Assembly (NCBI GenBank): GCA_964525635.1
Contig: CAZGJX010000030.1
Coordinates: forward strand, 1 to 38,721
DNA: 38,721 bases
Direction: 5' to 3'
Source of the DNA: an uncultured archaeon
GTDB lineage: Archaea > Asgardarchaeota > Lokiarchaeia > Sigyniarchaeales > SOKP01
The translations under genes were made by a program, and so were the position numbers. Below the pieces are notes generated by a model. That model was not told where the DNA came from. It made no database searches and saw only the letters and a list, made by a program, of their open reading frames with translations. Positions 4,946 to 33,400 of the stretch are shown here, in pieces (within the stretch, counting starts at the first letter, position 1; the number at the start of each line of letters is the position of its first letter).

Positions 4946-7396
4946 TTAATCATAAGTTGTTCTTAGATGTAAAATCTTGATTCTTAAATCATCAATATCG
5001 ATTTTTATTTTTTTTTCAGTTCTAAAAGTAATTAATTTTTCTTGATTAGCTATCATAGTAAAACAATTCTCCTTAAAATGACCTTCTAAATTTTCTATTA
5101 ATAAGTAAATAAAAAACGCAGGTTTATTTGAATATAATTTTATCAATAAGTTGTAATTATCAATCCTAATAATATTTATATTGAACTCTGGCACTTCTAA
5201 ATTACAAAATTTAGGTCTTGTTAGTAAAAAACTATTAAATAGTTCTTCTCCAGCATTATTATAGGTTAAAAATATAAAATGAGTTGATTTATCAAATTCT
5301 AATGAGTCAAATGTTCGTTTAAAAAGTTTAATAGAGGTTTCTGGATGCAGAATTACATCTAAATCATCTTCTTTTATAATCTCTCCAGAGAATTTTATAT
5401 ATTTTATATTTAAAACTCCAGAACTTTGTTTAAATGTATCATTTATCCCCCAGATTTCAATATTTTTATTATCTTTAGAATATACTACAATATGAATTGG
5501 ACGAAAACATCTTTTTACAGTATAATGTAGTAATTTCCAATTTCCTGTGTACTCTATTGAAGACCAAGAACTTACTGGCCAATTATCATTAAGCTGCCAA
5601 TAAATAATACCCATACATCTAGGTCTCTGACTTCTCCAATATTCTATTGCTATTTTTAATCCATAAGCTTGTTGTATTTGACTTAGATACAATATTGCTT
5701 CAAAAGATTTAGGATTTCTAAAATAATTACTAATTGATTTAGAAATTATTTTGTTTCCTCTTTTATTCTTCTGGTGATGCTCCATATCTTTCGATTCTAA
5801 ATCTATTTGATTAACCTCCATAAATGTTTTTACTGTAGATAAAGAAGGATATGATTGATATCCAAATTCAGAACAAAAACGAGGGATAACCTCGTAATAT
5901 GCTTCAAAAGGTTTTTCTTCATGCCATACACTCCAATAATGCATATCACCCTTTCTATCATTGTGCCAATTATCAGTAAAATCATTCTCACCACCACATG
6001 GAGAACTAGGCCACCATATTCTTTTTGGATCTATTTTTTTAACTATATTTCCAATAAAATGATTTAATTTAAGATAATTTTTAACATAGATATCTCGTTT
6101 TTCTCTTGTAATTTCAAACTCTGTAAGCGCTCCAACATTTTCATTATCACCACACCATATCACAATTGAAGGATGATCTTTTAATCGTTTAATTTGGTGA
6201 ATTATTTCTTTTTCTACGTTATTCATAAATTCTTTTGTTGCAGGATATATTGCACAAGCGAACATAAAATCTTGCCAGACCAGAATTCCCCTTTCATCAC
6301 ATAATTGATAAAAATAATCACTTTCATATTGTCCACCTCCCCAAATTCTAATTATATTCATATTTGCTTCTATTACATCATCCAATAATAATTCATATCG
6401 TTCTGGGGTCTGAAGAGAAGGTAAAGCGTCAATAGGAATCCAATTCGCGCCTTTACAAAATATCTTTTTATTATTAATCTCAATAATAAAACTCATTCCT
6501 ATTTGATCTTCTTCATTTATTAATCTCAATTTTCTGAGACCAATTTTCTTTGAAATAATATCATCGAGAGTTTTAACTGTTAATTCATAGAGATTTTGTT
6601 CACCATATCCAAATGGCCACCATAATTTAGGATTTTCTATTATAATCTTTTCTCTAAATTTATTTAGACCTTTGGGTAACTTCTTCTCAATTATTCTTTT
6701 TTCATTTCCAAGATAAATTTCAATAATCTCTGAGATTATGCAAGGTGTATATAATTCAATATCTATTGTAATCTCACAAATGTCTTCATTATGTTCTTGA
6801 GATGTATGAATATATTCTATACGAGCATTATTATGTGCACCAATATAAATATCTCCATAGATCCCACTTACCATTAAACATGGTCCCCAATCCCATCCTG
6901 AATGACATTGGACTTTTCTAATTAAATTTCTGTGCATAGATTGAGTTGGATACATCGTATGTGGTAGTGGTATTGATAGATTTTTACTAAGTTCTAAAGC
7001 TTTATTTTCTACTGAAGTAAAATCAATACTTATTTCATTTTTTCCTTTAATAAGATATTTAGAAATATTTGCTCGAATTCTATTAAACATATTTTTAGAA
7101 CTATGAACTAAACATCTATTTATTTTAATATCCGCTATTGTATCTAAAGAATCTATATGAAGAAAAAGCTCTTTATCAGCAAGTAATTCTTTTGAAACAA
7201 TAAATGAACGATAACAGCTCCAATCTTTTTTACCAACCCATAAAATATCTAATTCATTAGTTCCTATATAAGGGTGTGGTATTTTTTTTGCTTCAATCAA
7301 CGCAGAGAATATATCTCCAGGGATATTAAATGGGATTGTTTCTTTTCTTTCATTTATATATAAATTCCAAGAACCGCTTAAATCAATTATCCTCAA
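4946..7396 (-). CDS. Beta-mannosidase, glycoside hydrolase family 2
   Basis: GH2 mannosidase motifs: RKVQCHSGWDWGP, KGANWIP, RIWGGGQYE, WQDFMFAC, WCGDNEN (acid/base Glu), SEFGYQS (nucleophile Glu), YWQLNDNWPVSSWSSIEY. No signal peptide. TTG start with an AGAGGA purine stretch upstream. Confidence 0.95.
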   Translation of the reverse strand: MRIIDLSGSWNLYINERKETIPFNIPGDIFSALIEAKKIPHPYIGTNELDILWVGKKDWSCYRSFIVSKELLADKELFLHIDSLDTIADIKINRCLVHSSKNMFNRIRANISKYLIKGKNEISIDFTSVENKALELSKNLSIPLPHTMYPTQSMHRNLIRKVQCHSGWDWGPCLMVSGIYGDIYIGAHNNARIEYIHTSQEHNEDICEITIDIELYTPCIISEIIEIYLGNEKRIIEKKLPKGLNKFREKIIIENPKLWWPFGYGEQNLYELTVKTLDDIISKKIGLRKLRLINEEDQIGMSFIIEINNKKIFCKGANWIPIDALPSLQTPERYELLLDDVIEANMNIIRIWGGGQYESDYFYQLCDERGILVWQDFMFACAIYPATKEFMNNVEKEIIHQIKRLKDHPSIVIWCGDNENVGALTEFEITREKRDIYVKNYLKLNHFIGNIVKKIDPKRIWWPSSPCGGENDFTDNWHNDRKGDMHYWSVWHEEKPFEAYYEVIPRFCSEFGYQSYPSLSTVKTFMEVNQIDLESKDMEHHQKNKRGNKIISKSISNYFRNPKSFEAILYLSQIQQAYGLKIAIEYWRSQRPRCMGIIYWQLNDNWPVSSWSSIEYTGNWKLLHYTVKRCFRPIHIVVYSKDNKNIEIWGINDTFKQSSGVLNIKYIKFSGEIIKEDDLDVILHPETSIKLFKRTFDSLEFDKSTHFIFLTYNNAGEELFNSFLLTRPKFCNLEVPEFNINIIRIDNYNLLIKLYSNKPAFFIYLLIENLEGHFKENCFTMIANQEKLITFRTEKKIKIDIDDLRIKILHLRTTYD

Positions 7397-10994: not shown

Positions 10995-11906
10995 ATGTCA
11001 GATAAAATTTCTTTATTTAATAAAAGGTTTCTTTTTCTTTTAATTTCATTTATTATATCATTTTTTTTTATTGGTTTGATAATTTTTCTAGCAAGTCCAA
11101 GTACAAAAGGAGTTTTATTTGGATTAGAAATGCCTCCAGAGTTTGTATCACATTTTATTAATCTATTACCAGGTCCTCTATGGACGGATATATTATTTTT
11201 ATATGGAGCTCCTATTTTAATGTTTATTATTATATCTTTTATCGCACCATATACTAATAAAGGATTTGTAAAAATACATCGTATTTTTTATATATTCAGA
11301 CAGAAACCATTCTATGGATTATGTCTTCCCTCGACAAAAATTTATGCTTCGAAATTAATTTTCCGTTCAATTATGGCAGGTTTTTTATCATTTGTCATAT
11401 CAGCTTATTTTGTACAGATAGGTTTAGGTCATTTATTTCGATATGGATATGCTCCATCTGAATTATTTGTTGCAGAAGCTACATTCTTAGGTACATTCTT
11501 TTTTCTTCCATTTGTCCTACTATTATTTTTTATTTTATGGGCTCTAGAAGACTCAGGAATTGTATCTTATAGAACATTTAAAGATAAAAGAAAAAATGTT
11601 GACATTAATGGAGTATATAAAATATATAAGGGATTTGTAGAATATACTGTAGGATTTTCAACACTGATTCTTTATTATGTCATTACAAATGATGCATTAA
11701 TAAAACATAATCCAGGAGATCCTGCATTCTTAATTCCTTTAATTTTATTTTTTCTACCATTTATTATATGTGGATTCTGTGCAATTCCTATATTTTTATA
11801 TGAAAAATACTTTGATAGAACATTAAAACGAGTAAAACTTTATCTTAAAAATCAGGGATATAATGAAATTAATATACCAGAATTTGAAAATATAGAGATT
11901 AGATAA
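10995..11906 (+). CDS. Uncharacterised membrane protein with about 6 TM helices; homologous to the C-terminal membrane domain of 22940..25561
   Basis: Six hydrophobic segments. WALEDSGIVSYR matches YLLDDAGIVYFR in the 873-aa protein. Confidence 0.85.
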   Translation: MSDKISLFNKRFLFLLISFIISFFFIGLIIFLASPSTKGVLFGLEMPPEFVSHFINLLPGPLWTDILFLYGAPILMFIIISFIAPYTNKGFVKIHRIFYIFRQKPFYGLCLPSTKIYASKLIFRSIMAGFLSFVISAYFVQIGLGHLFRYGYAPSELFVAEATFLGTFFFLPFVLLLFFILWALEDSGIVSYRTFKDKRKNVDINGVYKIYKGFVEYTVGFSTLILYYVITNDALIKHNPGDPAFLIPLILFFLPFIICGFCAIPIFLYEKYFDRTLKRVKLYLKNQGYNEINIPEFENIEIR

Positions 11907-15874: not shown

Positions 15875-16690
15875 TCATTCATCATTAAATATAGATATTG
15901 CTGGATTAATATCTAATTCAATAGAAATACCCGAATCTTGATTATGACTTGCATCTATTACTTTTTTATGTTTTTGATAAAATTTTTTGGTTGCAACTTG
16001 TAATTTTCGTTTTAATTCAATGGAATTATAATCACTAATCAAAATACCTGTTATTCCCTTATATGGTTCTAGTAAAATTGACCGTCTATCCTTTATCATT
16101 TGACGCATAGTTCCTGACTCCTTAATAATATGGTTTGTGATAATCGAAATAGAAGTTAAAGCTCCACCATAAATATCAATCAAATCTTTACTTATACCAT
16201 CCTCTATATTTTCTTCATATATATGTTTAGCAATAAATGTGCTATTAAAATTATCCATAAACAATAGGATCTGTGGTTTTGCTGGTTTAAAATAAGTATT
16301 GTTAAACTTCATAATATCTTTTGTAGAGACCACACCAACAGCTTTTCTATTTTCAGAAATTAAAACTCGTTTATAATTATTTTCTGTTAAAAATCTAATG
16401 ATCTTATCAATAGGGGTTTTAACATCGATTAATTCTACAGGTCCTTTCATAATATCCTTAATCAGTATTTCTGCCATATCCTCCTTATATAACCCCCCTT
16501 CATTAAGAAATTGAATAATATCTGTTTTAGTAATGATATAATATTCATTCTGCTTTTCATTATAGATAAAAATGGCAGATATTTTATGTATATCAAGTAA
16601 TTCAATAGCATCTTTTAATTTTGAATTTTTATCTAACATAATAACGTGTGGAGTCATAATCTCCTTAGCGACTGTAGATTCGATATCCAT
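15875..16690 (-). CDS. CBS-domain pair fused to a C-terminal longin-like domain
   Basis: CBS repeats: VAKEIMTPHV...IITKTDI and IKDIMKGPV...GVVSTKDI. The C-terminal about 130 aa has a beta-beta-alpha-beta-beta-beta-alpha pattern (DIYGGALTSI; SILLEP; GILISD; LKRKLQ..TKKFYQKH). ATG at 16690 preferred over TTG at 16702. Confidence 0.85.
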   Translation of the reverse strand: MDIESTVAKEIMTPHVIMLDKNSKLKDAIELLDIHKISAIFIYNEKQNEYYIITKTDIIQFLNEGGLYKEDMAEILIKDIMKGPVELIDVKTPIDKIIRFLTENNYKRVLISENRKAVGVVSTKDIMKFNNTYFKPAKPQILLFMDNFNSTFIAKHIYEENIEDGISKDLIDIYGGALTSISIITNHIIKESGTMRQMIKDRRSILLEPYKGITGILISDYNSIELKRKLQVATKKFYQKHKKVIDASHNQDSGISIELDINPAISIFNDE

Positions 16691-17016
16691 ATTATTCACC
16701 AAATTAAATAATGAAGATATTAATTTAAATTTAAGAACTAGAGAATATATATAAAAAAAATTATTTTAACTATTAATTTTTTAGCCATTTTAATGAGTTT
16801 ATTATTTAGAAAAGAAAAATAAATATAAATAAAAATTAAATTTATTATAACTAAGTTAGATGGTTATTTAACGTCCTTATTTATTCTTTATAGAATTTCT
16901 TTATTTTTTACTTAATTAATGTAAATTAAATTTATAGGTTTTTTATATTTCCAAAACAGTTCACTTTAGAATTGATAAATATATATTTATACTAATGATA
17001 AAAAGAGATGATAAAA

Positions 17017-17181: not shown

Positions 17182-17533
17182 TTGAAATTGATCTGAATCT
17201 AAATATTTTTTAAAATGAAGAAAAAAGGTTTTTTAATTATTTTATTTCTTTTTTATGTATATTTAAACCACAATTATTGAAATTCCTAACAAAAGACTAA
17301 AAGTTATAATTTAATATTCTAATAAAAATCAATCTTAAAAATTCAGAACTTATAGATCATTATACAAGTTAAAAAATCAAAACAAAAATCCTCATCAAAA
17401 TTATTATTTATTTGGCTTTAAAAATTTTTTATATTCCTATAATATTACTGCTAAAGTGATTTATAACATAAAATTTTATATATGATTAGCTTTTATTTTT
17501 AATATAATCCAATTATAAAAAATTGACAATAAT

Positions 17534-20134
17534 ATGAATACAAATAAAAAAAGAAAAATAGGTTTTTCAATTATTTGCACATTTTTAATAACACTTATAT
17601 TGCCTACATTACCTGTTGCACAAGTCACTAATCCTACTAATCTCAGAGAAGAAACTGTTATAAGCTCAGGTTATTGGAAAAGAGTTCAATGGGGTGGTAA
17701 TCCCTGGGATCCAAATCCTGTTTTTGGATATGCCCTAATGTTCGAACCTTTATTTGGTATGAATACTGTTGATAATGAGATAATTCCTGTTATAGGTACT
17801 TCTTATACTTGGAATGCTGATGGTAGTAAACTTATTATTTCTCTTAATCCTAATGCTAAATTCTCTAATGGTGAAAGTATAACTGCTACAGATGTAATCG
17901 CCAGTTATGAAACAGCAGCTAATCAATATAAATATAAAAGCGATTTTACGAAAATAGTCGATAGTTTTTTGATTATAGATACTAATACTATAAGAATTGA
18001 TTTAAAACCTAGTTTTAATTACAGTCGAAAAATAATAGAATTAATAACTACAGATATCCCAATTTTAGATAAGGATGTGTTAGATCTTGTTAAAGCAGAT
18101 CTATATGTGAGCGGAGAATATGATTATATGAACGGGGATTTATCTTTATGGCAACCTAACTTTTACGATCCAGCATATAATTCCGCCTATAAGGTCTATT
18201 CGGGCCCATATGAACCTTATTATTTAAATACTGATGGTACAGACGAGAGATTGAGATTAAGAGATGATTGGTGGGGATTTGGGAATATTTACCAGGACTT
18301 ACCCAATGCTCCAACTTCCTCTATTGATGGAATACCAAAATATATATCAAATCAAATATTTAATACTAATGAACTTAGAAATGAGGCATTACTTGCTGGT
18401 AATATAGATTTACACTCGACCTATTTCGAAAATGTAGTCTCTGCTTTACAAACTAATGAATACATTAATACATATTATGAAAGAAATCTTAATAAACCAT
18501 ATTTTCTTGGTCTAGGACCTGTTATTTCACTTGTACCAAATCAAATCAAATATCCATTTAATGAAAAATGGATAAGAGATGTTTTTGCTTATTCTATAAA
18601 TTATGATATCTATCCAGATTATTGTTTAGAGGGAGATTGGACTAGAGCAAGCCAAGGGTTCTTATCACCTGATAGTCCATCGCATACAAATGAATATGAT
18701 CCTGCTATCGATGCACAATATCAAATTTCTTATGATCCAACTATGGCTACAAAAATTTTGGAAAAACATTGTAAATGGAATGGTGCATATTGGTTTACAA
18801 GAACAAATCAATCTGATGGAGGAGGTACCCTTATAGGTAATTATGAAATCATTAACGTCCTAGGATGGACTGATATAAATGCAGCTACGGATTTACTAGC
18901 AAATGATTTGTATAGTATTGGTATCCCAACTGTAAGAGTTGATGTTAGTCAAGCTGATTGGGTAATACTAGTCAATGATCGAAATTTTGATTTAGCATTG
19001 CAGAACCAAGGTCCAGATTTACTTAAATCATCATTAAAAGTACTTGATGGTTTAAGAGGTGAACATTTACATAATAAAAATGCATCATCATGGCAAAACT
19101 CAAGTTATAATGATCTTTACAAACAATTTGAAGTTACAGCAAATGATCCTGTAAAAACAGCTTCTATTGTTTCTCAAATGCAAGAGATTTTAGCTAAAGA
19201 GAAACCAGAAATCCCTATTTGTAATAATGCATTTTGGTACCTTTATTCAACACAATATTGGAAAGGATGGCTGAATGTGAATAATCTTTATAATCAACAA
19301 GCAACCGTTTATACAGTCGATACAATGGCAGTAAAAGCACGATTATATCTTAATTTAAGACCATCTAATTCTCCCGATCCTACCCCAACTATACCAGTTC
19401 CACCAAATATTGATTCTCCTACAGATATTGATTATCAAATGGGAGATATAGGTAATTTAATCACATGGTCAGCAACAGATGATAATCCCACTGTTTATAA
19501 AATCACTCAAAATGGACTTTTGGTTTCCACCGGTTCTTGGAGTTCTGGGAATCCAATAACAGTAAATGTTGATGATCGTCCTTCTGGAATCTATATCTAT
19601 ACTTGTATCGTTAATGATGCTGATGATTCATCTAATTCAGATTCTGTCATTTTAACTGTGATTGGTCCACCAGTTATTATTGATAAACCTTCAGATTTTG
19701 AATATCTAGAAGGAGATACTGGTAATTTAATTACTTGGATTGCAACGGATAATAATCCAACAACTTATATAATTACTCGAAATGGTCAAACTATAGATTC
19801 CGGTTCATGGAGTAAGGGTAGTCAAATCAACATCAATGTTGATGATCTAACTGAAGGAACATACACTTTCACTTGTACAGTTTATGATGGAGATGAACAA
19901 ACAGATTCTAACTCTGTTATTGTGACTGTATATACATTTCATAATGGAGATGTAAATCACGATGGGGATGTCAATATTATTGATGCTCTTTTGACAGCTT
20001 ATTACTATGTAGCACTTGATCCTCAACCCTTTTATCCAGAAGAAGCAGATGTAAACAGAGACGGGTCCATTGATATTGTAGATGCAATGTTGATTGCTCA
20101 AGCGTATGTTGGATTGATTGATCTTCCACCATAA
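17534..20134 (+). CDS. Secreted ABC-type family-5 solute-binding protein with a Pro/Thr linker, two Ig-like repeats and a C-terminal dockerin
   Basis: Signal peptide (KKRK then hydrophobic). SBP5 motifs: MFEPLF, AKFSNGESITATDV, SGPY, YPFNEKWIR..AYSIN, MQEILAKEKPEIPI, STQYWKGW. Linker PSNSPDPTPTIP. Dockerin GDVNHDGDVNIIDAL...ADVNRDGSIDIVDAM. Confidence 0.92.
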   Translation: MNTNKKRKIGFSIICTFLITLILPTLPVAQVTNPTNLREETVISSGYWKRVQWGGNPWDPNPVFGYALMFEPLFGMNTVDNEIIPVIGTSYTWNADGSKLIISLNPNAKFSNGESITATDVIASYETAANQYKYKSDFTKIVDSFLIIDTNTIRIDLKPSFNYSRKIIELITTDIPILDKDVLDLVKADLYVSGEYDYMNGDLSLWQPNFYDPAYNSAYKVYSGPYEPYYLNTDGTDERLRLRDDWWGFGNIYQDLPNAPTSSIDGIPKYISNQIFNTNELRNEALLAGNIDLHSTYFENVVSALQTNEYINTYYERNLNKPYFLGLGPVISLVPNQIKYPFNEKWIRDVFAYSINYDIYPDYCLEGDWTRASQGFLSPDSPSHTNEYDPAIDAQYQISYDPTMATKILEKHCKWNGAYWFTRTNQSDGGGTLIGNYEIINVLGWTDINAATDLLANDLYSIGIPTVRVDVSQADWVILVNDRNFDLALQNQGPDLLKSSLKVLDGLRGEHLHNKNASSWQNSSYNDLYKQFEVTANDPVKTASIVSQMQEILAKEKPEIPICNNAFWYLYSTQYWKGWLNVNNLYNQQATVYTVDTMAVKARLYLNLRPSNSPDPTPTIPVPPNIDSPTDIDYQMGDIGNLITWSATDDNPTVYKITQNGLLVSTGSWSSGNPITVNVDDRPSGIYIYTCIVNDADDSSNSDSVILTVIGPPVIIDKPSDFEYLEGDTGNLITWIATDNNPTTYIITRNGQTIDSGSWSKGSQININVDDLTEGTYTFTCTVYDGDEQTDSNSVIVTVYTFHNGDVNHDGDVNIIDALLTAYYYVALDPQPFYPEEADVNRDGSIDIVDAMLIAQAYVGLIDLPP
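19400..19936 (+). repeat. Two tandem Ig/PKD-like repeats of about 89 aa within the SBP gene
   Basis: Repeat 1: P.D..Y..GDIGNLITWSATDDNPTVYKIT.NG...GSW. Repeat 2: GDTGNLITWIATDNNPTTYIIT.NG...GSW. Units start at about 19400 and 19667. Confidence 0.9.
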
Positions 20135-20649
20135 GATAATTGAAAAATAAGTAAAATTATCGAAAAATAGTATAATTAACAAAAAATTTTTTTTATATCT
20201 TAATTAATATTTACTCATTTTGTATTGATACTTCCATATTTAATGTAATCTTTTATTATAATTGAATTAGGAATGCCTTAATTATATTGCTTTAAAAGAA
20301 GATTATTAATATTCAATAAATATGTAAAAGAACGTAAAAACTAGAAAAATACTCATGTTTATGATGAATAATTTTATTAGATATTTTTTCATCATCTATT
20401 TATGTTTATTACTCCATTTAGTATTTTGTAATTATAATTAAAACTTCTAAATCTACGTTCTCATATTACACTAATTAGAAAATGGAAAATTAATTTGTTA
20501 TCAAGGATGTGTGTGTTTTGTATTAAAAAATATTAAAAAATCATGCTATATTTTAAGATATTTAACTTTTATTTATAGGAGATCATTTAAATTTCTTCTA
20601 TTTTAAAATATAAAAAAAAAATTTAACATTTAAGATTAATCCAAATAAA

Positions 20650-22233
20650 TTACCAAACTAAATCATTAATGACTTCTTGCGCTTTTTCTGATACTCTTTT
20701 ACCTAAAATCCTTTTTACGCGAAGATCACTAATGGCTTGCTCAAGTTGAGTATCTAGATTCTTAATTTGATCCATAAGATTTGACTTATCGCCTTCTTTC
20801 TCAACTAAATTAATAACTGGATTATATTTATTCATAAGATCTTCAAGTTTACTCCTAAATTTTTCTTTAACTTTAGTCGATACTATTTTCGAGTTATCAA
20901 CTAAAATAGGAAGGACAGGTACTCTTTTTGTTGTTCTTTTAGTGTTTGGATCTGTAAAATGAAATATAAATATAGGAATCCCAACCACAACATCTTTAGT
21001 TTTTAATTCTATTGTGTAGTTCTTAAGAAATTGTTGTACACCATTCATTTCCTGATCTTTTACATATTCTATATTGTCTAAACAAGCTTGTTTCACTCGT
21101 TTTATAGTAGTCACTATCTCTTCAGCAGATACAGTTTTACTGCTAAGATCACTATGCTTGTTTTCAATCTGCCTTTCGACATCAGCAATTTTTCTCTCTA
21201 AATCAGTAATTCTCATTTGATGCATTTTCTCTATATCTGAAATTTCTCGATCTATATTTCTGTGTAGCTGATTAATTTCATTTTGATATCTATTAATCGA
21301 ATTTCCCAATTCTGCATATCTCATATTTAATTCTTTCATTGCTTCATCAAGTAGAAAAAGCTCCTTTTTATCAACAGCATTTTTTACTCTTCCAATGGAA
21401 TTTTTAAATGAATCAATATTATTTTGAAATTCACCTGTTTTATCATTTATTTTATATTTACCCGATTTAATTAATTCTTCTGGAGTTGCATGCAAGTCTC
21501 TTTCTTTCTCTTGTTGCAATTCTTTATTTAATATGGCGAGTTGTTTTTCCTCTTCACTTGTATCGATCTTTGTATCCCTAAATTTATCAGCTTCTTGAGC
21601 TCCTTTTTTAACCCATTTTTCACACAATGAGATTATTATTTCACTATACTTATCAAGCATTTTTACATCCTTTTGCTCAATAAATTCATATATATCTTGA
21701 ACCATTTTTATCTGATTAACACTTTTAGAAATAGGATCTCCTTCTAATAAGAAATAAGAATTTGAAAAGGAACTTATATTATATTGATTTAGAAAAAAAG
21801 TTTTGAAATAATCAATATCAGCAGCAGTAAATAATGCCTCTTGAATTATTTTTCCTCTATTAAAATTAGAGGATTTACTTAGATGTCTTTTATTATAATT
21901 TTCTAACGATGTCAAAAAAGAAACTGGATCTGCCCCAGTTATTACATTATCTGGTTTTGGAGGAATTTTTTTAAATTTACCCAGATATAATGTTTCCTGT
22001 GTATTTAGAAGATAAGAGCATACGCAAGCACGAGTTTCATTTAAAGGAATCAACCGAACTGGCCAAAAACATGCTGTAATGTGATGAACTTTTCCAAGCT
22101 TTTTTAATTTAACACCATAAATATCAATCAATTCTACTAAACCCATAGCCATTTCATTTAAAAGTGTAGCTAGGGCCCTAGTAGGAATAATGTCCCCTAA
22201 ATTAATTAAATAAGGAATGACTCTATCTACCAT
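20650..22233 (-). CDS. Conserved-looking hypothetical protein with a long central coiled coil between globular termini
   Basis: 527 aa with heptad repeats at about aa 225-400. GGTGA ribosome-binding-like site upstream. No Walker A motif. Confidence 0.85.
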   Translation of the reverse strand: MVDRVIPYLINLGDIIPTRALATLLNEMAMGLVELIDIYGVKLKKLGKVHHITACFWPVRLIPLNETRACVCSYLLNTQETLYLGKFKKIPPKPDNVITGADPVSFLTSLENYNKRHLSKSSNFNRGKIIQEALFTAADIDYFKTFFLNQYNISSFSNSYFLLEGDPISKSVNQIKMVQDIYEFIEQKDVKMLDKYSEIIISLCEKWVKKGAQEADKFRDTKIDTSEEEKQLAILNKELQQEKERDLHATPEELIKSGKYKINDKTGEFQNNIDSFKNSIGRVKNAVDKKELFLLDEAMKELNMRYAELGNSINRYQNEINQLHRNIDREISDIEKMHQMRITDLERKIADVERQIENKHSDLSSKTVSAEEIVTTIKRVKQACLDNIEYVKDQEMNGVQQFLKNYTIELKTKDVVVGIPIFIFHFTDPNTKRTTKRVPVLPILVDNSKIVSTKVKEKFRSKLEDLMNKYNPVINLVEKEGDKSNLMDQIKNLDTQLEQAISDLRVKRILGKRVSEKAQEVINDLVW

Positions 22234-22939: not shown

Positions 22940-25561
22940 TTAATCATTGTCTTCTTTATTTTTTATTGGTAACCCAGATGGATAGAGATTTGTTAATTTT
23001 TTAGGTTTTATAACGTATCCTTTTGTCTCCATCTTCTTATATAGCCGCTGAGTGTTATCTTCTAATGAAAACTCCATTATTTCTTGTGAAAGTAAAATAT
23101 ATGAAAAAGCAGTGAAAAATGGAGTTCCCCAAAAAATTACTATTACCATGAAAGTTCCAAATATTATCATTTCTTCTTGGAAAAATCCACTAAAATCTAC
23201 ATTTGAAAGAAATTGGAAAAAAGTTACTAAAGCAGATATTCCCGCTACTCCCTTAATCATTGATTGAGACCATACACTTATCGATTCAACATCTCCTGGT
23301 TTTCTATGTTTTTTTGATTGACGGAAGTATACTATTCCAGCATCATCCAATAAATAATTGCCAGCTATAAAAAAAGAAAATAAAATAAATGATAATATCA
23401 TTGGAAGTATACATAAAAGATTATAACCAACAATAAAATCAAAAAATTCTGTTGAACCAAACCTTGTAAATTTCATTGTATAACCAAGGATCGGAGATAA
23501 AGTATTATATGAATAGAATCCTATTGCAATTGATAGTAATAATGGTAAAATAACTCTTTGGATTTTAATTAACGTTCCAACATCTGTTCTGTTTTCCATA
23601 TCTAGTACAATAATATCATTGTGATATTTCTTTGAAATCTTGAAAAATAAATCACGCAATTTAATAAAAAAGAAAGCAAAATGAGGTGCAAAATGATTAA
23701 ATATAGCAGCTGTTAATGGTAACATTCCATACCATATAATTGAAACTGAAATAAATGCAACTGTAATATCGGTCATACTATATCCAGCAATAAGTATCTG
23801 ATTAAATATATTAATTTGTAAAAGAAATAGGAAAAATGTAATTGACATCAACATAATTGTCATAAAATTGACGAATATCACCAATTTGCTTTTTTTTATT
23901 TTTCTAAAGATTTCTTTTCGTCTTAGATTCAATTTCCTACTATTACGTATCAATAATAATATTCCAATAAAAATAAATGCTACAAATAATATAAAAAGAG
24001 GAATTCCAAATGGAAAGTCAGAAGAAAGCCATACAGCAACAGGGTTTTTAGTAGACAATATGGTAATTCTCTGCCATCCAATAATTAATAAATCCTTTTT
24101 GTTATCGTTATTAAAATCATCGATAGTCATTAAACGATTAACATCAGTATCGGTATCAATTATGACTAAATTATCATTTTTTATTACATTTTTAATGTAA
24201 AATCTTTTAATTTTATTAGGAGAGAGAAAAGGTTGGATTTCCTTAACCAAGACCAGCTCATTAATTTTATCACCATCTAGATCATCATCTAATGCGTAAA
24301 ATCTTATAGGCTGCTCTGTGATTTTTTGATACTCCCAAATGAGATCATTTGTACTTGCATCAATTTTATATACATATATCTCATTATAAACTCTTGTATT
24401 ATTATTTGAAGGGATTTCTTCATAATCGAAATTTCTAATATAAATATAAGCTTCATTAATATCCTCATCATATCCAATTTCCTTTAATTCTAGGCTTTCA
24501 GGTTCATAATTTAGTTGGAAATCAAAAGAATTTAAAAGTGTTCCGTCTATCCCTCTATATATATCAATAATGACATGTGTACCATTTTCTGTTAGAACAA
24601 AGATTTCAAAATTATCATCTGAGTCTAAATCTTTGATAATATCAAAGGACTGTATATTTGATGACATTGAAATATTATAAATTGGATCTGAATAACTTAA
24701 ATTAGCAGTATCTAAAAGAAGTATATTATTATTATCTTTAAATATTAATTGTTCCAATCCATTATGATTATACAACCTAATTTCAGGAATATCTTTTGGA
24801 TTGTTATACAAATTTTTATATTCTATCGTATTTCCAGTATATTTATTATATTTTTTTGTACCATCGATAAAATAGCTAGTTAAATTTACATTGAAAGGAA
24901 CATCAATGGTATTATTAGAGATTTCTAAACAAAAGAAATCTTCAAAGGATTCAGAGAGATCACTCAGACTAACACAATCAATAATTCCATATGTATCAAA
25001 ATTAGCATCTGTTTCGATTTTTGACCCATTATTACCACTTATAATAAAATTGTCAAATTGATCGAAATATATTAATGGTTCTTTATATGGTTTCCCATCA
25101 AACCCATATTTAATAACCCAATTTTCATCAACGGTTGCAACACTAACTAAATAATCCAATGTATTATCACTGTTTATATCTGCAATTGGGAAAACTTTCT
25201 TTACAGGCCCTTCAAATTCTTTATTCCAAATTTTAACTCCATTAATACTATTAAATGCAATAATACCTCCAAATTGAGGATTATTAGCGTGAGTTAATTC
25301 TTCTTCTTCATTTGAATCTAAAACTTCAATATCTAAATAAATAATTATATCATTAGTTCCATCTTTATCAAGATCATCAGCTGGTAAAGCAAAGACATCT
25401 ATTGGATATTGATCTTGAAAATCTGACCAAATCCAACCAGGTGTTGTTTCCATCTGAGTAATGAAAATTATACCTAGTCCTCCAAAAATGAGTAGAGAAA
25501 TAGATATAAGAACTAAATTGACAGGTTCAGATCTTATCTTTTTAAATTTTCGTAAATTCAT
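22940..25561 (-). CDS. Membrane protein with an N-terminal anchor, an extracellular FG-GAP/VCBS-type Ca-binding repeat domain and about 7 C-terminal TM helices
   Basis: Repeats: DDLDKDGTNDII, ADINSDNTLDYL, KDLDSDDNFEIF, DDLDGDKINELV, DDFNNDNKKDLL. Seven hydrophobic segments after about aa 515. Confidence 0.85.
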   Translation of the reverse strand: MNLRKFKKIRSEPVNLVLISISLLIFGGLGIIFITQMETTPGWIWSDFQDQYPIDVFALPADDLDKDGTNDIIIYLDIEVLDSNEEEELTHANNPQFGGIIAFNSINGVKIWNKEFEGPVKKVFPIADINSDNTLDYLVSVATVDENWVIKYGFDGKPYKEPLIYFDQFDNFIISGNNGSKIETDANFDTYGIIDCVSLSDLSESFEDFFCLEISNNTIDVPFNVNLTSYFIDGTKKYNKYTGNTIEYKNLYNNPKDIPEIRLYNHNGLEQLIFKDNNNILLLDTANLSYSDPIYNISMSSNIQSFDIIKDLDSDDNFEIFVLTENGTHVIIDIYRGIDGTLLNSFDFQLNYEPESLELKEIGYDEDINEAYIYIRNFDYEEIPSNNNTRVYNEIYVYKIDASTNDLIWEYQKITEQPIRFYALDDDLDGDKINELVLVKEIQPFLSPNKIKRFYIKNVIKNDNLVIIDTDTDVNRLMTIDDFNNDNKKDLLIIGWQRITILSTKNPVAVWLSSDFPFGIPLFILFVAFIFIGILLLIRNSRKLNLRRKEIFRKIKKSKLVIFVNFMTIMLMSITFFLFLLQINIFNQILIAGYSMTDITVAFISVSIIWYGMLPLTAAIFNHFAPHFAFFFIKLRDLFFKISKKYHNDIIVLDMENRTDVGTLIKIQRVILPLLLSIAIGFYSYNTLSPILGYTMKFTRFGSTEFFDFIVGYNLLCILPMILSFILFSFFIAGNYLLDDAGIVYFRQSKKHRKPGDVESISVWSQSMIKGVAGISALVTFFQFLSNVDFSGFFQEEMIIFGTFMVIVIFWGTPFFTAFSYILLSQEIMEFSLEDNTQRLYKKMETKGYVIKPKKLTNLYPSGLPIKNKEDND

Positions 25562-28383: not shown

Positions 28384-31300
28384 TTATTTAAAGTTTAATA
28401 AAGCAAAAGCTATTAACTTAGTATTTAATTTTCCTTGGTTTTTTTTTATCATATCATTTTTAAGATCAGTATAAAAAAAAGAGAGATTATCTAATTTTTT
28501 GTCTAATTTAATAATAATATTCTTCATAAATCGAATTTGTTCCTCTAATTCTTGTATTTGGTTTAACCGCTTTTGTCTTTGTTTCTCATCTTTTAAGCTA
28601 TTAATTCTGTTTAATTGTTTTTCATTTGGGAGATTATCAATTTTTCTTTTAAGTTTTATATTGAGAATATTTTTTTTCTTTTCTAACACTTTTTTTTTAT
28701 AATGATATAATTTCTCTTTTTTATTAATATCAAGGTTGAAAATTTTATCATTTAATGTTGTTATTTCATTTTTCCAGTTTAAGTTTTTTTTCTTTACCAA
28801 ATTCCTAGCTTTTTGACGTAAATCGATAATTCTATTTTTCCCAATATTAGGAAATCTTATATTTTGATTATTAAAATTGTATAATATATCATAATCTTTA
28901 ATATCTAATATGATCTCTTCAAGATTTTTAAGTTCAATTCCTCTTTCATCAACAATAATCGCAGTTATTACATTTTCTATAATATATCCATGAAATGAAT
29001 TGTTAAATACAAAAAGGAATAAAATATCATTATTATCATCAATAATAGTATTATTTTTGTTAATTACATCCTTATTTAAAGTTAGAATCGAGAAACTTCC
29101 TGAAAAAGTCTCCCCAATACAAAATTCAATAATAGAATTAATTAAAGGATGACCTAAAGCAAAGAAGTCTATTTCTTCCTTATTTTTAGCAATTTCCAAA
29201 TCAAAAGTACCATAATACTCTTCTAAAAGCTTTTGATAAGAATGGTTTTGTAAAACCTCTTTTAATACTATTTTTGATTCATAATTAATCGGATTTTCAT
29301 TATTTTTTATAGTAGAATTAAGGTTTTGAATATAACCAAATTTATTACTATTAAGATTAAAAAATAAGTTAATTAAAAGAAATAATTCATTATGACTTAA
29401 TTTGACATCTTCACATGAAGAAATAAATGAGATTAAATCTTTCATTTGAAATGATTTTTTATCAATTATAAAGTCATCAAGTTGCATTTCGATTTCTGTT
29501 AAATTTTTTAATTGATTTTCCAGATCAAAATTAAATTCTCTCAGTTTTCTCTGCTTTTGCTCAGGTTCAGAAAAGATTAGGTCCTTAAAATCCTTTTCAA
29601 TACTTCCAATAATAGGTTCAAGATAACCTATAGATTCCTCAAAGAGATTAATCCTTTTATTTAAAGCAAATAGTATATCTGCCTCGATAGTCCCCTCCAT
29701 AAAGAGATTATAAATATATAATTTCCTAGATTTTTGACCAATCCGATCAAGTCTCCCTATTCTTTGTTCGAGTTTCATAGGATTCCATGGGAGATCATAA
29801 TTAATAAGGACTCGACAGAACTGAAAATTTCTTCCTTCGCCACCTATTTCAGTTGAAAGTAAAATAGATAATTTTTCACTATTTCTAAATCGTTCTACAG
29901 CTTCATATTTTTCAATCTTATTTAATCCTCCATAAAAAGTCTCGATAGTATATAGATTATGATTTTTCATTAACAAATCCTTCAAATAAAGTAGAGTATC
30001 AACAAATTGGGTAAACACCAAGATTTTTTCTTCAGGATTGTTTTTATATATTTGATTAATAATCTCAAGGAATTTATCTGATTTTGAATCATATGGTATT
30101 GCAACTAATTTAGAATGAAATTCTCTAAGAATATTTTCTTGATTAAGAACATTCATAAAATTTTTATTAGTTCTAGCGGACTTTGGTTTTAAAATATCAA
30201 TTTTAGATTCTATATCAAGGTATTCTTCTTCTAATTCAGATTGAAAAAATTCAGGGTCATCATATTTGATATGCTTAAATTCTTCTGAAATGTTTTTTAG
30301 ATTATTAATTTGTTTTAATCTCCTTTCAAGGCTATTTAAAATAGCATATTTAGAACTAGTAAGTAGTTTCTGTAGAGTGGTTATTACAAAACCGATCCCA
30401 GGATTTTTATTACTCATAGCAGAATTATAGATTTTTGCTAAATATAGACGGATTTCATTATAAATATCTAATTCTTCTTTAGTAGGATGAAGCATTATCG
30501 TCTTTACAATTCTTTCATTCAATAGATCTTTTGGAAAGATATTTTTTTTTCTGTTTCTGATTAGAAATTTTGATAATGTATGATCCTTTTCTAAATTTCC
30601 AATTAAAAGAGATTTAGCATCTGAATTTTTAATATATTGAATTATTTCTTTATTTGATTGATTTTCATTTATATACCCAAATTCTTTTAATAATTTAATG
30701 GTATTTTTTAATTCAAATGTATTTAATTTATCAATTTGGTTTATATTTGAAGCTAAAAGATTAATAAAGGGTATATTCTTTCTAAAATGTTCAAAATCAG
30801 AAAAATTTCTAAATAATTCTGGATGAATAAGCTCTATTAATGAAAATAATTCAAATGAATGAAGTTGTAATGGCGTAGCAGTTAATAATAATAAACTTTC
30901 ACAATTTTCACTTAATTTTTTAGCCAAAGAAAAATTCATTGTTTCTCTATAATTACAAGTTGTTATATTTGTTGAATATCTTCGTAAATGATGTGCTTCA
31001 TCAAAAATAACTACATCCCATGAAATTTGAGATAATAAATCTCGATATTTAGGATTTCTGGCAAAGTGAAGTGAACATATAATAAGATTATCATAATAAA
31101 ATGGATTTTCTAATTGGTTTGAATATTTATTTGTTCCTTTTTTTTTAAGATTCTTATATCTTTTTCCATCATATATTATAAAATCTATATTAAACTTATT
31201 TTTCATTTCAAATTGCCATTGCTTTACCAAAGTAGCTGGTACAATTATCAAAATCCTTTCAACTAAATTCCTTGCAATCATTTCTTTCATATATATTCCC

Positions 31301-32004
31301 GCTTCAATAGTTTTCCCAAGACCAACTTCATCCGCTAAAATTACCCTTGGGAAAAATTCTTCTGAAAGTCTATGAGCTACATTAATTTGATGTGGCATTA
31401 AAGTTAATCTTGAATTGGTTATACATTTAATATGATGAGATTTATAATATGAATTAAATAAATTTGCCCAATATCTAATTAGGAAGTTTTTAGGAGGATC
31501 AATATCCTTTTCTATTAATTGGTTTTTTAAGTTGGATAAAGGTTTTAGGATGATTTCAGATTCATAAATTTGTGAAGTCTTTCCATTTGGTAATAATACC
31601 TCATAAGAAAGCTTACCATCTTTAATTAAGATTTCAGAAGAATTAATTATTCCATTTTGATTTTTAAATTTGATTTCTTCATTGATTCGAAATATATAAT
31701 GTATTAAATCAATAGGATGGATGATTTTAGAAAGATTATTTTTAAATTTTACTTTAAATTTAACAATGAAAGAGAGATCTTCCTCATCAAAGGATTTAGA
31801 AGTTGGGATTTTGATTTTTTTAACTATTTTCCCTATCCCAAAATTTGGATTTAATCTATACAAAACTAAATTATCTTCATTAAATTCTTTTCCATTACAA
31901 TATATGTTAAAACATTTAGAAAATCTCGAAATCAGACTATTATTACAAAAAGGACATTTATATTTTAGTTGAATATCAATTTCATTCTCAAAATCTTTAT
32001 CCAT
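28384..32004 (-). CDS. SNF2-family (RapA/HepA-like) ATPase with an N-terminal Cys4 motif and a C-terminal coiled coil
   Basis: Motifs: LMPHQ, ILADEVGLGKTIEAG, VPATL..QW, DEAHH, LLLTATPLQ, KILVFTQF, STEIGGEGRNFQF, NYDLPWNPMKLEQRIGRLDRIGQ, plus RapA-like GTF..GHPLI. Confidence 0.93.
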   Translation of the reverse strand: MDKDFENEIDIQLKYKCPFCNNSLISRFSKCFNIYCNGKEFNEDNLVLYRLNPNFGIGKIVKKIKIPTSKSFDEEDLSFIVKFKVKFKNNLSKIIHPIDLIHYIFRINEEIKFKNQNGIINSSEILIKDGKLSYEVLLPNGKTSQIYESEIILKPLSNLKNQLIEKDIDPPKNFLIRYWANLFNSYYKSHHIKCITNSRLTLMPHQINVAHRLSEEFFPRVILADEVGLGKTIEAGIYMKEMIARNLVERILIIVPATLVKQWQFEMKNKFNIDFIIYDGKRYKNLKKKGTNKYSNQLENPFYYDNLIICSLHFARNPKYRDLLSQISWDVVIFDEAHHLRRYSTNITTCNYRETMNFSLAKKLSENCESLLLLTATPLQLHSFELFSLIELIHPELFRNFSDFEHFRKNIPFINLLASNINQIDKLNTFELKNTIKLLKEFGYINENQSNKEIIQYIKNSDAKSLLIGNLEKDHTLSKFLIRNRKKNIFPKDLLNERIVKTIMLHPTKEELDIYNEIRLYLAKIYNSAMSNKNPGIGFVITTLQKLLTSSKYAILNSLERRLKQINNLKNISEEFKHIKYDDPEFFQSELEEEYLDIESKIDILKPKSARTNKNFMNVLNQENILREFHSKLVAIPYDSKSDKFLEIINQIYKNNPEEKILVFTQFVDTLLYLKDLLMKNHNLYTIETFYGGLNKIEKYEAVERFRNSEKLSILLSTEIGGEGRNFQFCRVLINYDLPWNPMKLEQRIGRLDRIGQKSRKLYIYNLFMEGTIEADILFALNKRINLFEESIGYLEPIIGSIEKDFKDLIFSEPEQKQRKLREFNFDLENQLKNLTEIEMQLDDFIIDKKSFQMKDLISFISSCEDVKLSHNELFLLINLFFNLNSNKFGYIQNLNSTIKNNENPINYESKIVLKEVLQNHSYQKLLEEYYGTFDLEIAKNKEEIDFFALGHPLINSIIEFCIGETFSGSFSILTLNKDVINKNNTIIDDNNDILFLFVFNNSFHGYIIENVITAIIVDERGIELKNLEEIILDIKDYDILYNFNNQNIRFPNIGKNRIIDLRQKARNLVKKKNLNWKNEITTLNDKIFNLDINKKEKLYHYKKKVLEKKKNILNIKLKRKIDNLPNEKQLNRINSLKDEKQRQKRLNQIQELEEQIRFMKNIIIKLDKKLDNLSFFYTDLKNDMIKKNQGKLNTKLIAFALLNFK

Positions 32005-32134
32005 AATGAGTTTTAGTTTATTTTAAATATCTAATGATTAAATTTTAAATTATTATTTATTATAAGTGAAGAATCCAAATGAAATGAATTTTATCCTTTA
32101 ATTAGTTAAAATTAGAATGATGAATTGATTTCAT

Positions 32135-32462
32135 TTATTTATTTAATAAAGTTGGTGTACCTTCTATATTGTATTGGTAAAATTTCTTATCATAAGGGAT
32201 ATGTATTTGAATTTGCTTAATATTTACCACTTGCTCTTATTGAACCAAAACTGTTTTCTGTTTTTATAAAGCTACAAAACTCAAAATTATTATTGTCTTT
32301 TATTTGATTAAATTTAGGTCGTGAAGTTTTGGTGCAGCACCAATATTTATTATTGTATGGAATTATGGAGATTATCCTTAGCTTAGGCTTATCATTATCT
32401 ATGGTAGCAAGACTTACTGTCTCAAGCTTGTTTAAAAAACCAAATATTTGTTGAACTTTCAT
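32135..32462 (-). pseudogene. Disrupted pyridoxamine 5'-phosphate oxidase-like (split-barrel FMN/F420-binding) gene
   Basis: The N-half is typical (VSLATID.DKP.LR, T....KFNQIK.N..FEF, IRASG) but stops at 81 aa. A shifted frame continues IKQIQIHIPYDKKFYQYNIE... to TAA at 32135. Confidence 0.65.
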
Positions 32463-32509
32463 GATAAATAATTAACTATTAAATTATAATTAAAAAGTAA
32501 AAAAATAGG

Positions 32510-33085
32510 TTATTTAAATTTTATATATTTTAAAATACGATATAATCCAAAACAGCCTATAAATATCATAAAGAAAGAAAAAGAAGTCCAGAGAATCACA
32601 TTAGAAGGTAATTCAGGATTTCTCAAGTTAAACCACAAAAGTGCATTATAATAGATAAGAACTAAATTACTTATAATAAGAGTGATAATTAAAGTTATTC
32701 TGAATAATTTTAAACTTGATGTGAAAGGATTCATTTTCCTTCCCATATAAAACAAAATTATAAACATCTCAGAAAAAAGAAAACCTTCAAGAAAAATAAC
32801 AATGGCAAGGTGTTGGAGCCAATTTCTTGCCTTACCAGGTCCTGCAGAAACAAAAAACTGATTAAATATATCTTCATGATAATATTGAAGATAAACAGTC
32901 CAAAAAAAGAAAATAATTCCAATAAGAGTAATTATTAGAGAAATAATAATCATTACTTTCAATAATTTTAATCCTGGTCCTAGTGGTTCTTTCTTTGGAT
33001 GGGAGTCTATTGTAGATTCATTTTTTATTTTCATTGAAAAATATCGACCTTTTTTATCATTAAAATTTTTAGTTAATCTAAACAT
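32510..33085 (-). CDS. 4-TM hypothetical membrane protein
   Basis: Four hydrophobic helices. Alternative start ATG at 33034. Confidence 0.75.
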   Translation of the reverse strand: MFRLTKNFNDKKGRYFSMKIKNESTIDSHPKKEPLGPGLKLLKVMIIISLIITLIGIIFFFWTVYLQYYHEDIFNQFFVSAGPGKARNWLQHLAIVIFLEGFLFSEMFIILFYMGRKMNPFTSSLKLFRITLIITLIISNLVLIYYNALLWFNLRNPELPSNVILWTSFSFFMIFIGCFGLYRILKYIKFK

Positions 33086-33400
33086 AATTATAATCCTATA
33101 TCTATATGTTTTTTATTATTATTATTTGGATATAATTAGATATATATTTTTTTAAATATTAAAATAATCAATAGACCAATTTTTATCTGTTACTTTTATA
33201 TTAAAATTGAGTTTCCACTATATCATTTCATTTAGACCTTATTATAATTAATTTCAGACAGATCTTTTAGATATGTAATTTTAATAATAATTAGATTAAA
33301 AATTAAACAACTATTTTTAGTAATAAGTATAAGGTTTTAAGCTTTAAAAAAAAATTTAATCATATCAGAAACATTAATTTATGAATAAGAGGTTTCTAAA

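Follow-up and report, generated by a model that had tools for sequence, protein, structure and literature searches.

The window considered here is a stretch of 38,721 nucleotides from an uncultured archaeon (Asgardarchaeota; Lokiarchaeia; Sigyniarchaeales; SOKP01; GenBank assembly GCA_964525635.1), which constitutes the whole of contig C30 (CAZGJX010000030.1) in a genome of 4.45 Mb that was assembled into 245 contigs with a GC content of 26.8%. Positions 17534 to 20134 of its forward strand encode a secreted protein of 866 residues, which is built from a family-5 solute-binding protein (SBP) domain, a linker, two immunoglobulin (Ig)-like repeats and a C-terminal dockerin, and the gene is monocistronic, since both of its neighbours lie on the opposite strand. 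On the evidence of the sequences compared below, the protein is considered, with modest confidence, to be an accessory receptor of an Opp-type ATP-binding cassette (ABC) importer, in which the ancestral membrane anchor would have been replaced by the Ig-dockerin cassette of the cellulases, and which would be docked for the capture of oligosaccharides.

The protein begins with a signal peptide at about residues 1–30 (17534..17623, +), where a KKRK n-region and a hydrophobic core are followed by ...PVAQ; it appears as a helix at residues 3–25 of the structure model, and the paralogue on contig C42 possesses the same ...LPVAQVT motif. The family-5 (cluster C) solute-binding domain (17624..19357, +) was recognized by Pfam, which matched SBP_bac_5 (PF00496) at residues 82–496 with 102.9 bits against a cut-off of 32.4 (E 2.7e-29), as well as by sequence matches in the Protein Data Bank (PDB), by the model and by Foldseek. 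The SBP residues that are invariant in the family are retained, and the predicted local distance difference test score (pLDDT) of the model is about 90 over most of residues 40–610. A Pro/Thr/Ser-rich linker evident from the sequence (residues 609–625; 19358..19408, +) leads into two Ig-like repeats of the K319L-like PKD type, the first of which (about 19406..19669, +) was delineated by repeat comparison and the second (19670..19933, +) by repeat comparison and Pfam (residues 758–799); the two are 56% identical over 84 residues (E 4e-33). As a module of 88 residues, this Ig-like repeat (19409–19933 in the window) is very widespread, an exhaustive search having retrieved 579 proteins at E ≤ 1e-30, among which proteins of up to 6801 residues were matched in up to 23 stretches.

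The C-terminus is formed by a type I dockerin with two calcium-loop/helix repeats (19946..20131, +), which was matched by Pfam (Dockerin_1, PF00404) at residues 805–856 with 41.6 bits against a cut-off of 22.9 and recovered by a dockerin profile scan of the whole genome at 19946–20101 with 46.1 bits. Alignment with the 24 other dockerins of the genome revealed two DxNxDGxxxxxD calcium loops, each with its helix, DVNHDGDVNIID and DVNRDGSIDIVD, and both loops are complete. The chain terminates ten residues past the second dockerin helix, and neither a C-terminal hydrophobic stretch nor a lipobox was found in the protein sequence. An earlier reading made from the letters of the window (hereafter the sequence-only reading) had proposed just this order of signal peptide, family-5 SBP, Pro/Thr linker, two Ig-like repeats and C-terminal dockerin, with the last at about 19946–20131 and with no C-terminal transmembrane (TM) anchor or obvious lipobox, and Pfam, the genome scan and the protein sequence agree with it on these points. 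Because a separate Joint Genome Institute (JGI) contig of 1616 bases carries residues 489–866 with 100% identity, the SBP-Ig-dockerin junction is not an assembly chimera.

Homologues of the solute-binding domain were hand-picked from an exhaustive search, whose top list was dominated by the widespread Ig repeat; a word-indexed protein search, queried with either the protein alone or a profile of 15 sequences, returned 4–5 matches and was useless for counting architectures. The relatives bear Lokiarchaeota and Hodarchaeota names, and the aldehyde:ferredoxin oxidoreductase gene of the window shares 77–89% identity with genes from metagenome-assembled genomes labelled Promethearchaeota and Hermodarchaeota, in agreement with the Asgard-like label given in the sequence-only reading. 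In most full-length homologues from the genus, family and order, the C-terminus consists of a linker followed by a hydrophobic helix and a basic tail, and several of them (P0118, P0150, G001:C75 and G003:C187) carry one to three of the same Ig repeats, followed by an IPGY-helix-basic tail. The anchored SBPs of Lokiarchaeota and Hodarchaeota (P0071 = MBN1803464.1, P0155 = MBN1215525.1, P0001 and P0118) are members of the same subfamily with 30–38% identity, and resemble the window protein in the style of the signal peptide and, in some cases, in the same Ig repeats, but they end in the hydrophobic helix and basic tail where the window protein ends in the dockerin. A dockerin was found in only two homologues, namely the window protein and G003:C545 (= P0107), which consists of an SBP, three Ig repeats and a dockerin. 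In a maximum-likelihood tree, the former groups with support 100 with the TM-anchored paralogues C42 and C242 of its own genome, and the latter is placed among Ig-TM and TM forms in another clade that is well supported. Monophyly of the dockerin forms was rejected (dlnL 224, p-AU 3e-56), where the constrained group was defined after the tree had been seen and the margin is large, and the anchor-to-dockerin swap therefore took place at least twice. The suggestion that the dockerin stands in place of the membrane anchor was thus strengthened, as comparison of the homologues, which end there in a TM helix or in an Ig repeat with an IPGY-TM tail, shows an exchange of the one for the other.

In some family-5 SBP paralogues, including C155:3-629 (+) in the same genome, G001:C153 (L072), G003:C339 (L073) and P0089/P0155, a TM helix precedes a conserved cytoplasmic tail of about 130 residues (...EEMYSFTPQERMEIILDILDKSE), an arrangement that points to a variant with a receptor or signalling role instead of a simply anchored SBP. 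It could be imagined from these paralogues (C155, G001:C153, P0089), and from the fact that SBPs can serve as signalling receptors (PMC8050422), that the docked SBP reports oligosaccharides to a membrane signalling protein and regulates the expression of the complex instead of taking part in import. Such a sensory role is very improbable, however, as the window protein has neither a TM helix nor a cytoplasmic part, no partner sensor was identified, and nothing regulatory occurs in the gene neighbourhood.

The presence of a cohesin partner in the same genome, which had been named beforehand as the test of the docking proposal, was borne out. Pfam gave 11 cohesin matches of 24–32 bits, and an iterative search of the six cohesin-bearing proteins resolved 13 cohesin-like modules, ten of which are distributed over four scaffoldins, one encoded on C10 with three modules and three encoded on C110 with three, two and two, respectively. 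The other three modules are located on a peptidase of family C25, which itself ends in a dockerin. One cohesin module was modelled by AlphaFold with a pLDDT of 88.6, and solved cohesins accounted for 45 of the top 46 Foldseek matches listed (prob 1.00, TM-score 0.6–0.78), including those of C. cellulolyticum, C. acetobutylicum, A. thermocellus and Archaeoglobus; 1g1k, 2vn6, 6kgf, 1ohz and 1aoh are among the top matches. The scaffoldins possess a signal peptide, and their last Ig repeat is followed by GGGEIPGY, a hydrophobic helix and RKRRQ, a tail that spans the 27-residue Loki-CTERM sorting domain of NCBIfam (NF033507) end to end with scores below the cut-off (15.9–17.3 versus 19.9 bits); no Pfam match to an exosortase or archaeosortase was obtained in the genome. 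The combination of IPGY, helix and basic tail is common to the scaffoldins (C110:2913-5243, C10:4303-6618) and to the Ig-TM SBPs, as seen at the C-terminus of P0118. According to Pfam, the scaffoldins contain cohesin and PKD-like domains only, with no carbohydrate-binding module (CBM), and CBM3 and CBM4_9 sit on the enzymes.

The further dockerin-bearing proteins that the sequence-only reading had wished to see listed are likewise present, cellulases included, as the Pfam profile scan yielded 25 dockerin matches above the cut-off, that is, 24 besides the window protein. By their Pfam domains, the docked set comprises three glycoside hydrolases of family 9 (GH9) with CBM3 and fn3, five GH5 enzymes, some of which carry CBM3, CBM4_9 or PKD, one GH16 enzyme with F5/8C, two S8 and two C25 peptidases, a chagasin-type inhibitor, a propeller protein, LamG giants and several small proteins. 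All four of the docked GH5 enzymes that were checked are nearest to solved endoglucanases, and the scaffoldin genes adjoin GH9-dockerin and GH5-dockerin genes on C110 and C10. In the chagasin-family (I42) inhibitor, encoded at C22:34569-36032, the dockerin is situated near the N-terminus (residues 124–174) instead of at the C-terminus, and this protein possibly regulates the C25 and S8 peptidases of the docked set from a docked position of its own.

In the alignment of the 25 dockerins, that of the window protein is nearest to those of two GH9-CBM3 proteins (74% and 73%) and of GH5-CBM3 (72%), the three together spanning 71–74%, followed by that of GH16 (70%). The cassette formed by the last Ig repeat and the dockerin has 64–66% identity to the tails of the two GH9 enzymes and 60% to that of GH5-CBM3, values that exceed the 53–59% identity between the SBP domain and its best paralogues in the same genome, and the same Ig repeat also occurs between the cohesins of the scaffoldins. 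As judged from these identities, the dockerin of the window SBP belongs to the set of the cellulases.

With regard to the ligand, the best sequence matches in the PDB are tmCBP (2o7i, 4jsd; E 1e-16) and TM1223 (4pft, 1vr5; E 2e-15), whereas NikA and the peptide binders were matched at E 1e-6 or weaker and over short stretches only. The structure model gave a concordant picture, since the top 17 Foldseek matches are all oligosaccharide binders (E 1e-34 to 1e-27), comprising TM1226/TM1223 with mannobiose or mannohexaose, tmCBP with cellobiose and the chitin-oligosaccharide binders of Vibrio, and the binders of glutathione, nickel and peptides follow lower in the list, from E of about 2e-25 on; the matches to 4pfu, 4pft, 1vr5 and 2o7i had prob 1.00 and target TM-scores of 0.72–0.88. 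The tmCBP of Thermotoga maritima binds cellobiose and laminaribiose (PMC3850815; PMC8050422) through a pocket that contains Trp15, 380, 383, 426, 510 and 535 (PMC3850815), and three of these six tryptophans, Trp15, Trp380 and Trp510, are aligned with W48, W445 and W568 of the window protein. The sugar-binding role that had been suggested from the sequence is supported in that the nearest solved relatives, by sequence as well as by fold, bind oligosaccharides; from these comparisons and the model, beta-linked oligosaccharides are favoured as the putative ligand, and gluco-oligomers would be the most likely among them because of the docked enzymes.

The same comparisons bear on another role, in which the protein would be an oligopeptide or metal-chelate receptor serving a proteolytic arm of the complex, where the docked S8 and C25 peptidases release peptides. 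Four dockerin-bearing peptidases and the chagasin-type inhibitor are indeed members of the docked set, the window protein has weak N-terminal NCBIfam matches to NikA, GsiB and OppA, an abundant family-5 SBP of a cultured Asgard archaeon has been read as peptide-related (PMC11284389), and the dockerin SBPs of anaerobic methanotrophic (ANME) archaea are annotated as NikA/OppA (PMC9012536). This role is nevertheless improbable, since the closest solved relatives are oligosaccharide binders by both sequence and fold, the window dockerin groups with the dockerins of the cellulases rather than with those of the peptidases, and GH94, GH1 and GH3 enzymes are present although no other sugar-type SBP was found in the genome.

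A candidate partner translocator for an oligosaccharide receptor can be traced through the paralogues. In relatives, an OppB homologue follows directly after the SBP gene. In the genome itself, the start of C165 holds the last 58 codons of a same-clade SBP with a TM tail, whose ...TVDTMAVKARLYL... segment is almost identical to that of the window protein, and OppB, OppC, OppD and OppF follow about 600 bp later, the ATPases of which carry oligo_HPY. Further same-clade SBP ends were located at the starts of C96, C155 and C242 and another copy on C42, which brings the SBP paralogues of the genome to at least six in all. Neither SBP_bac_1 nor SBP_bac_8 was found in the genome, which encodes three GH94 phosphorylases, one GH1 and two GH3 enzymes. 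The description of the SBP as an orphan, given in the sequence-only reading, accordingly holds for the contig, on which neither a permease nor an OppD/F-like ATPase was found, but not genome-wide, where a same-clade paralogue is situated upstream of OppBCDF on C165. Judged from gene content and order, import via this Opp-type system would be the simplest route found from the docked cellulases to the cytoplasm.

At five places, a contig end interrupts a same-clade SBP gene, as at C165:6301-6474, C96:3-233 and C242:2-736 and 1523-1687, and since the SBP family breaks the assembly in this manner, the copy number of the paralogues and their operon links are undercounted. The closest full paralogue, at C42:30877-33122, is 53–55% identical and has a TM tail; its sequence is divided over two frames that overlap (31178-31981 and 31887-33122), and upstream of them lies a third SBP-like fragment. 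Either a frameshifted pseudogene or an error in the assembly may account for this. Another OppB-like permease, the second, seems to be split between C117:207-458 (−) and C62:24692-25375 (−); on C62, neither OppC nor OppD nor OppF follows downstream.

If the docked SBP fed no transporter at all, it might act as a non-catalytic sugar binder that directs the complex to its substrate, removes inhibitory products such as cellobiose or keeps oligomers close to the cell. Such a function would be consistent with an SBP gene that is solitary and far from any permease, with scaffoldins that have no CBM in Pfam, with the long stalk of the protein and with the dispensability of the gene within the genus. 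It is nonetheless unlikely, as the SBP domain is full-length and conserved, keeps the family-invariant residues and comes from a family that is otherwise linked in operons to OppB; moreover, the docked enzymes already carry CBM3 or CBM4_9, and closed-form SBPs bind soluble oligomers, not polymer surfaces.

As for the surroundings of the gene, the order EamA - CBS - coiled-coil is kept in the sister species, where the intact genes are 69–79% identical at the protein level. The CBS-domain gene on the left (15875..16702, −) is 73% identical to its counterparts, and the gene on the right (20650..22233, −), which encodes a coiled-coil protein of 527 residues, is 78–79% identical. The gap between the two measures 460–600 bp in the sister species versus 3.9 kb in the window, where it holds the SBP gene, and the stretch at 17182..20649 is missing from the syntenic block of three sister species. 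The best SBP match in any sister genome is at most 37% identical to the window SBP. From this synteny, the SBP gene would be either a lineage-specific insertion or a gene that was lost in the sister species. A recent foreign origin was rejected: the GC content at third codon positions (GC3) is 0.167, at the genome median (genome mean 0.172), and the elevated total GC of 0.33 stems from codon positions 1–2, so that the raised local GC is attributed to amino-acid content and not to recent import.

The absence of the insertion from the sister species, the split frames of C42 and the several copies that break the assembly at contig ends might also be taken to mean that the gene is a non-functional or drifting duplicate, whose dockerin fusion is a domain-shuffling accident in an unstable paralogue family. 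The intact frame of 866 residues, the family-invariant residues, both complete calcium loops and the GC3 at the genome median stand in opposition to this, as does the independent rise of the same kind of swap in a sister species, and an accident of this sort is regarded as the least probable explanation of the gene.

In accordance with the sequence-only reading, which had reported no ABC permease or ATPase in the window, a BPD_transp_1 permease was not found on the contig by Pfam, nor an OppD/F-like ATPase by tblastn. The window also contains a GH2 beta-mannosidase-like gene (4946..7396, −), the product of which has no room for a signal peptide because the Pfam match starts at residue 10. Docked mannanases, sought as support for a putative link between the SBP and this beta-mannosidase, were not found, all four GH5 enzymes tested being nearest to endoglucanases. 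Two further open reading frames, at 22940–25561 (−; 873 residues) and 10995–11906 (+; 303 residues), gave no Pfam match at E ≤ 0.001, and a scan of the locus for promoters and terminators of bacterial type was uninformative, the host being an archaeon.

Taken as an accessory import receptor, the window protein would operate as follows. Its dockerin would plug, with Ca2+, into the cohesins of the scaffoldins bearing two to three cohesins, beside the GH9, GH5 and GH16 enzymes, and the SBP domain would be held on a flexible stalk formed by the linker and the two Ig domains. The SBP would capture beta-linked oligosaccharides, likely cellodextrins or other beta-glucan oligomers, upon their release, and would hand them to the OppBCDF translocator of C165, after which they would be consumed by the cytoplasmic GH94 phosphorylases and GH1/GH3 glycosidases. 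The proposal of the sequence-only reading, that a capture module is docked on a cohesin scaffold in a cellulosome-like system, is supported as far as genome data go. More tentatively, and with some doubt, the scaffold of the genus as a whole may be viewed as a machine for both hydrolysis and uptake, in which the one oligosaccharide-type ABC importer detected would have its receptor placed on the membrane-anchored cohesin strip of the cellulases, so that products are caught at the site of their formation. This arrangement would have arisen twice in the genus, in both cases by exchange of a Loki-CTERM-like anchor for the Ig-dockerin cassette of the cellulases.

Several observations weigh against import by a docked receptor. 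The cohesin call rests on weak Pfam scores (24–32 bits) together with a predicted fold, and a search of PDB sequences with the profile of the cohesin modules found no cohesin, the modules having been identified by the fold search. In the full-length AlphaFold2 (AF2) model, the Ig-dockerin tail is of low confidence and was left unused. On the side of the ligand, the identity to any solved SBP is about 20%, only three of the six pocket tryptophans of tmCBP are aligned (Trp383 is replaced by I448, Trp426 faces a gap and Trp535 lies beyond the alignment), and mannoside binders lead the fold matches by a small margin, so that no single sugar is indicated. On the side of transport, the window SBP gene adjoins no transporter gene, and a receptor docked on a scaffold may be out of reach of the permease. 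The dockerin SBP is found in only two of the four genomes of the genus and is therefore dispensable.

Among 41 relatives, dockerins at E ≤ 1e-5 were confined to the genus, with 25, 18, 11 and 14 matches in its four genomes, and to one genome of another family (23), and at E ≤ 1e-9 a dockerin occurs in 8 of 400 genomes of the phylum, which represent 5 of 85 genera. All four of the other dockerin-rich genomes also contain cohesins of this type. Two of the four dockerin loci fetched from other lineages (G133 and G084) are not SBPs as judged by their N-termini, and a motif scan of G090 and of the second G084 dockerin locus gave nothing. In the ESM Atlas, the nearest cluster is mostly from Bathyarchaeota and comprises 105 members, with SBP_bac_5 in all and Dockerin_1 in 14%, which serves as a lead only.

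Dockerin-bearing SBPs of the NikA/OppA and TroA types, as well as proteins with up to five cohesins, have been described in ANME archaea (Chadwick et al. 2022, PLoS Biol, PMC9012536). The reservation of the sequence-only reading, that the architecture might already be known, is consequently justified in that OppA/NikA-type dockerin SBPs have been published, and the fusion of a dockerin with an SBP is not in itself new. Both systems feature an archaeal family-5-type ABC SBP with a dockerin in a genome that encodes multi-cohesin proteins, and surface tethering is a deduction in both. Unlike the ANME case, the present host is an Asgard archaeon (Promethearchaeota), the same type of dockerin is carried by GH9, GH5 and GH16 enzymes, so that the scaffold resembles a cellulosome instead of a rack of transporters, the window SBP is nearest to sugar binders, and the swap of the TM anchor is traceable among paralogues. 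What is new here is that the docked SBP is combined with cellulases and that its swap from a Loki-CTERM-like anchor, which occurred twice, can be traced.

Compared with the bacterial cellulosomes of Ruminiclostridium cellulolyticum (CipC), Clostridium acetobutylicum (CipA) and Acetivibrio thermocellus (CipA), the archaeal set shares type I dockerins of two repeats, the cohesin fold, GH9-CBM3 and GH5 cargo and, as deduced here from the genes, the ABC import of cellodextrins followed by GH94 phosphorolysis. It differs from them in that its scaffoldins have no CBM and possess an IPGY-TM tail in place of SLH or sortase signals. The cellodextrin SBPs of R. papyrosolvens and R. cellulolyticum have been treated as separate extracellular subunits of the transporters, for which a dockerin is not mentioned (e.g. 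CauA, PMC6628489), and no publication was found on a docked SBP in a bacterial cellulosome or on a dockerin-bearing SBP in a cellulase-carrying cohesin-dockerin system. With the Thermotoga maritima binders tmCBP/BglE TM0031 (2O7I, 4JSD) and TM1223/TM1226 (4PFT, 4PFU, 1VR5), the window protein has in common the GWTD motif, the three aligned tryptophans and a family with Opp-type partner permeases and ATPases, but those binders are periplasmic and untethered, without an Ig stalk or a dockerin.

As a dockerin fusion to a binding protein has already been published for other archaea, the finding is of moderate weight. It supplies a functional detail of what is apparently a surface system for cellulose degradation in Asgard archaea, which are of interest with respect to the origins of eukaryotes and to carbon turnover in sediments, and the traceable paralogues illustrate the exchange of a membrane anchor for a docking module. 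Cells that bear cellulosomes make better use of the released sugars than would be possible with free enzymes, and the capture of the products is usually left to separate lipoprotein receptors. If the proposed role is true, a receptor docked on the scaffold would constitute a direct molecular link between digestion and uptake.

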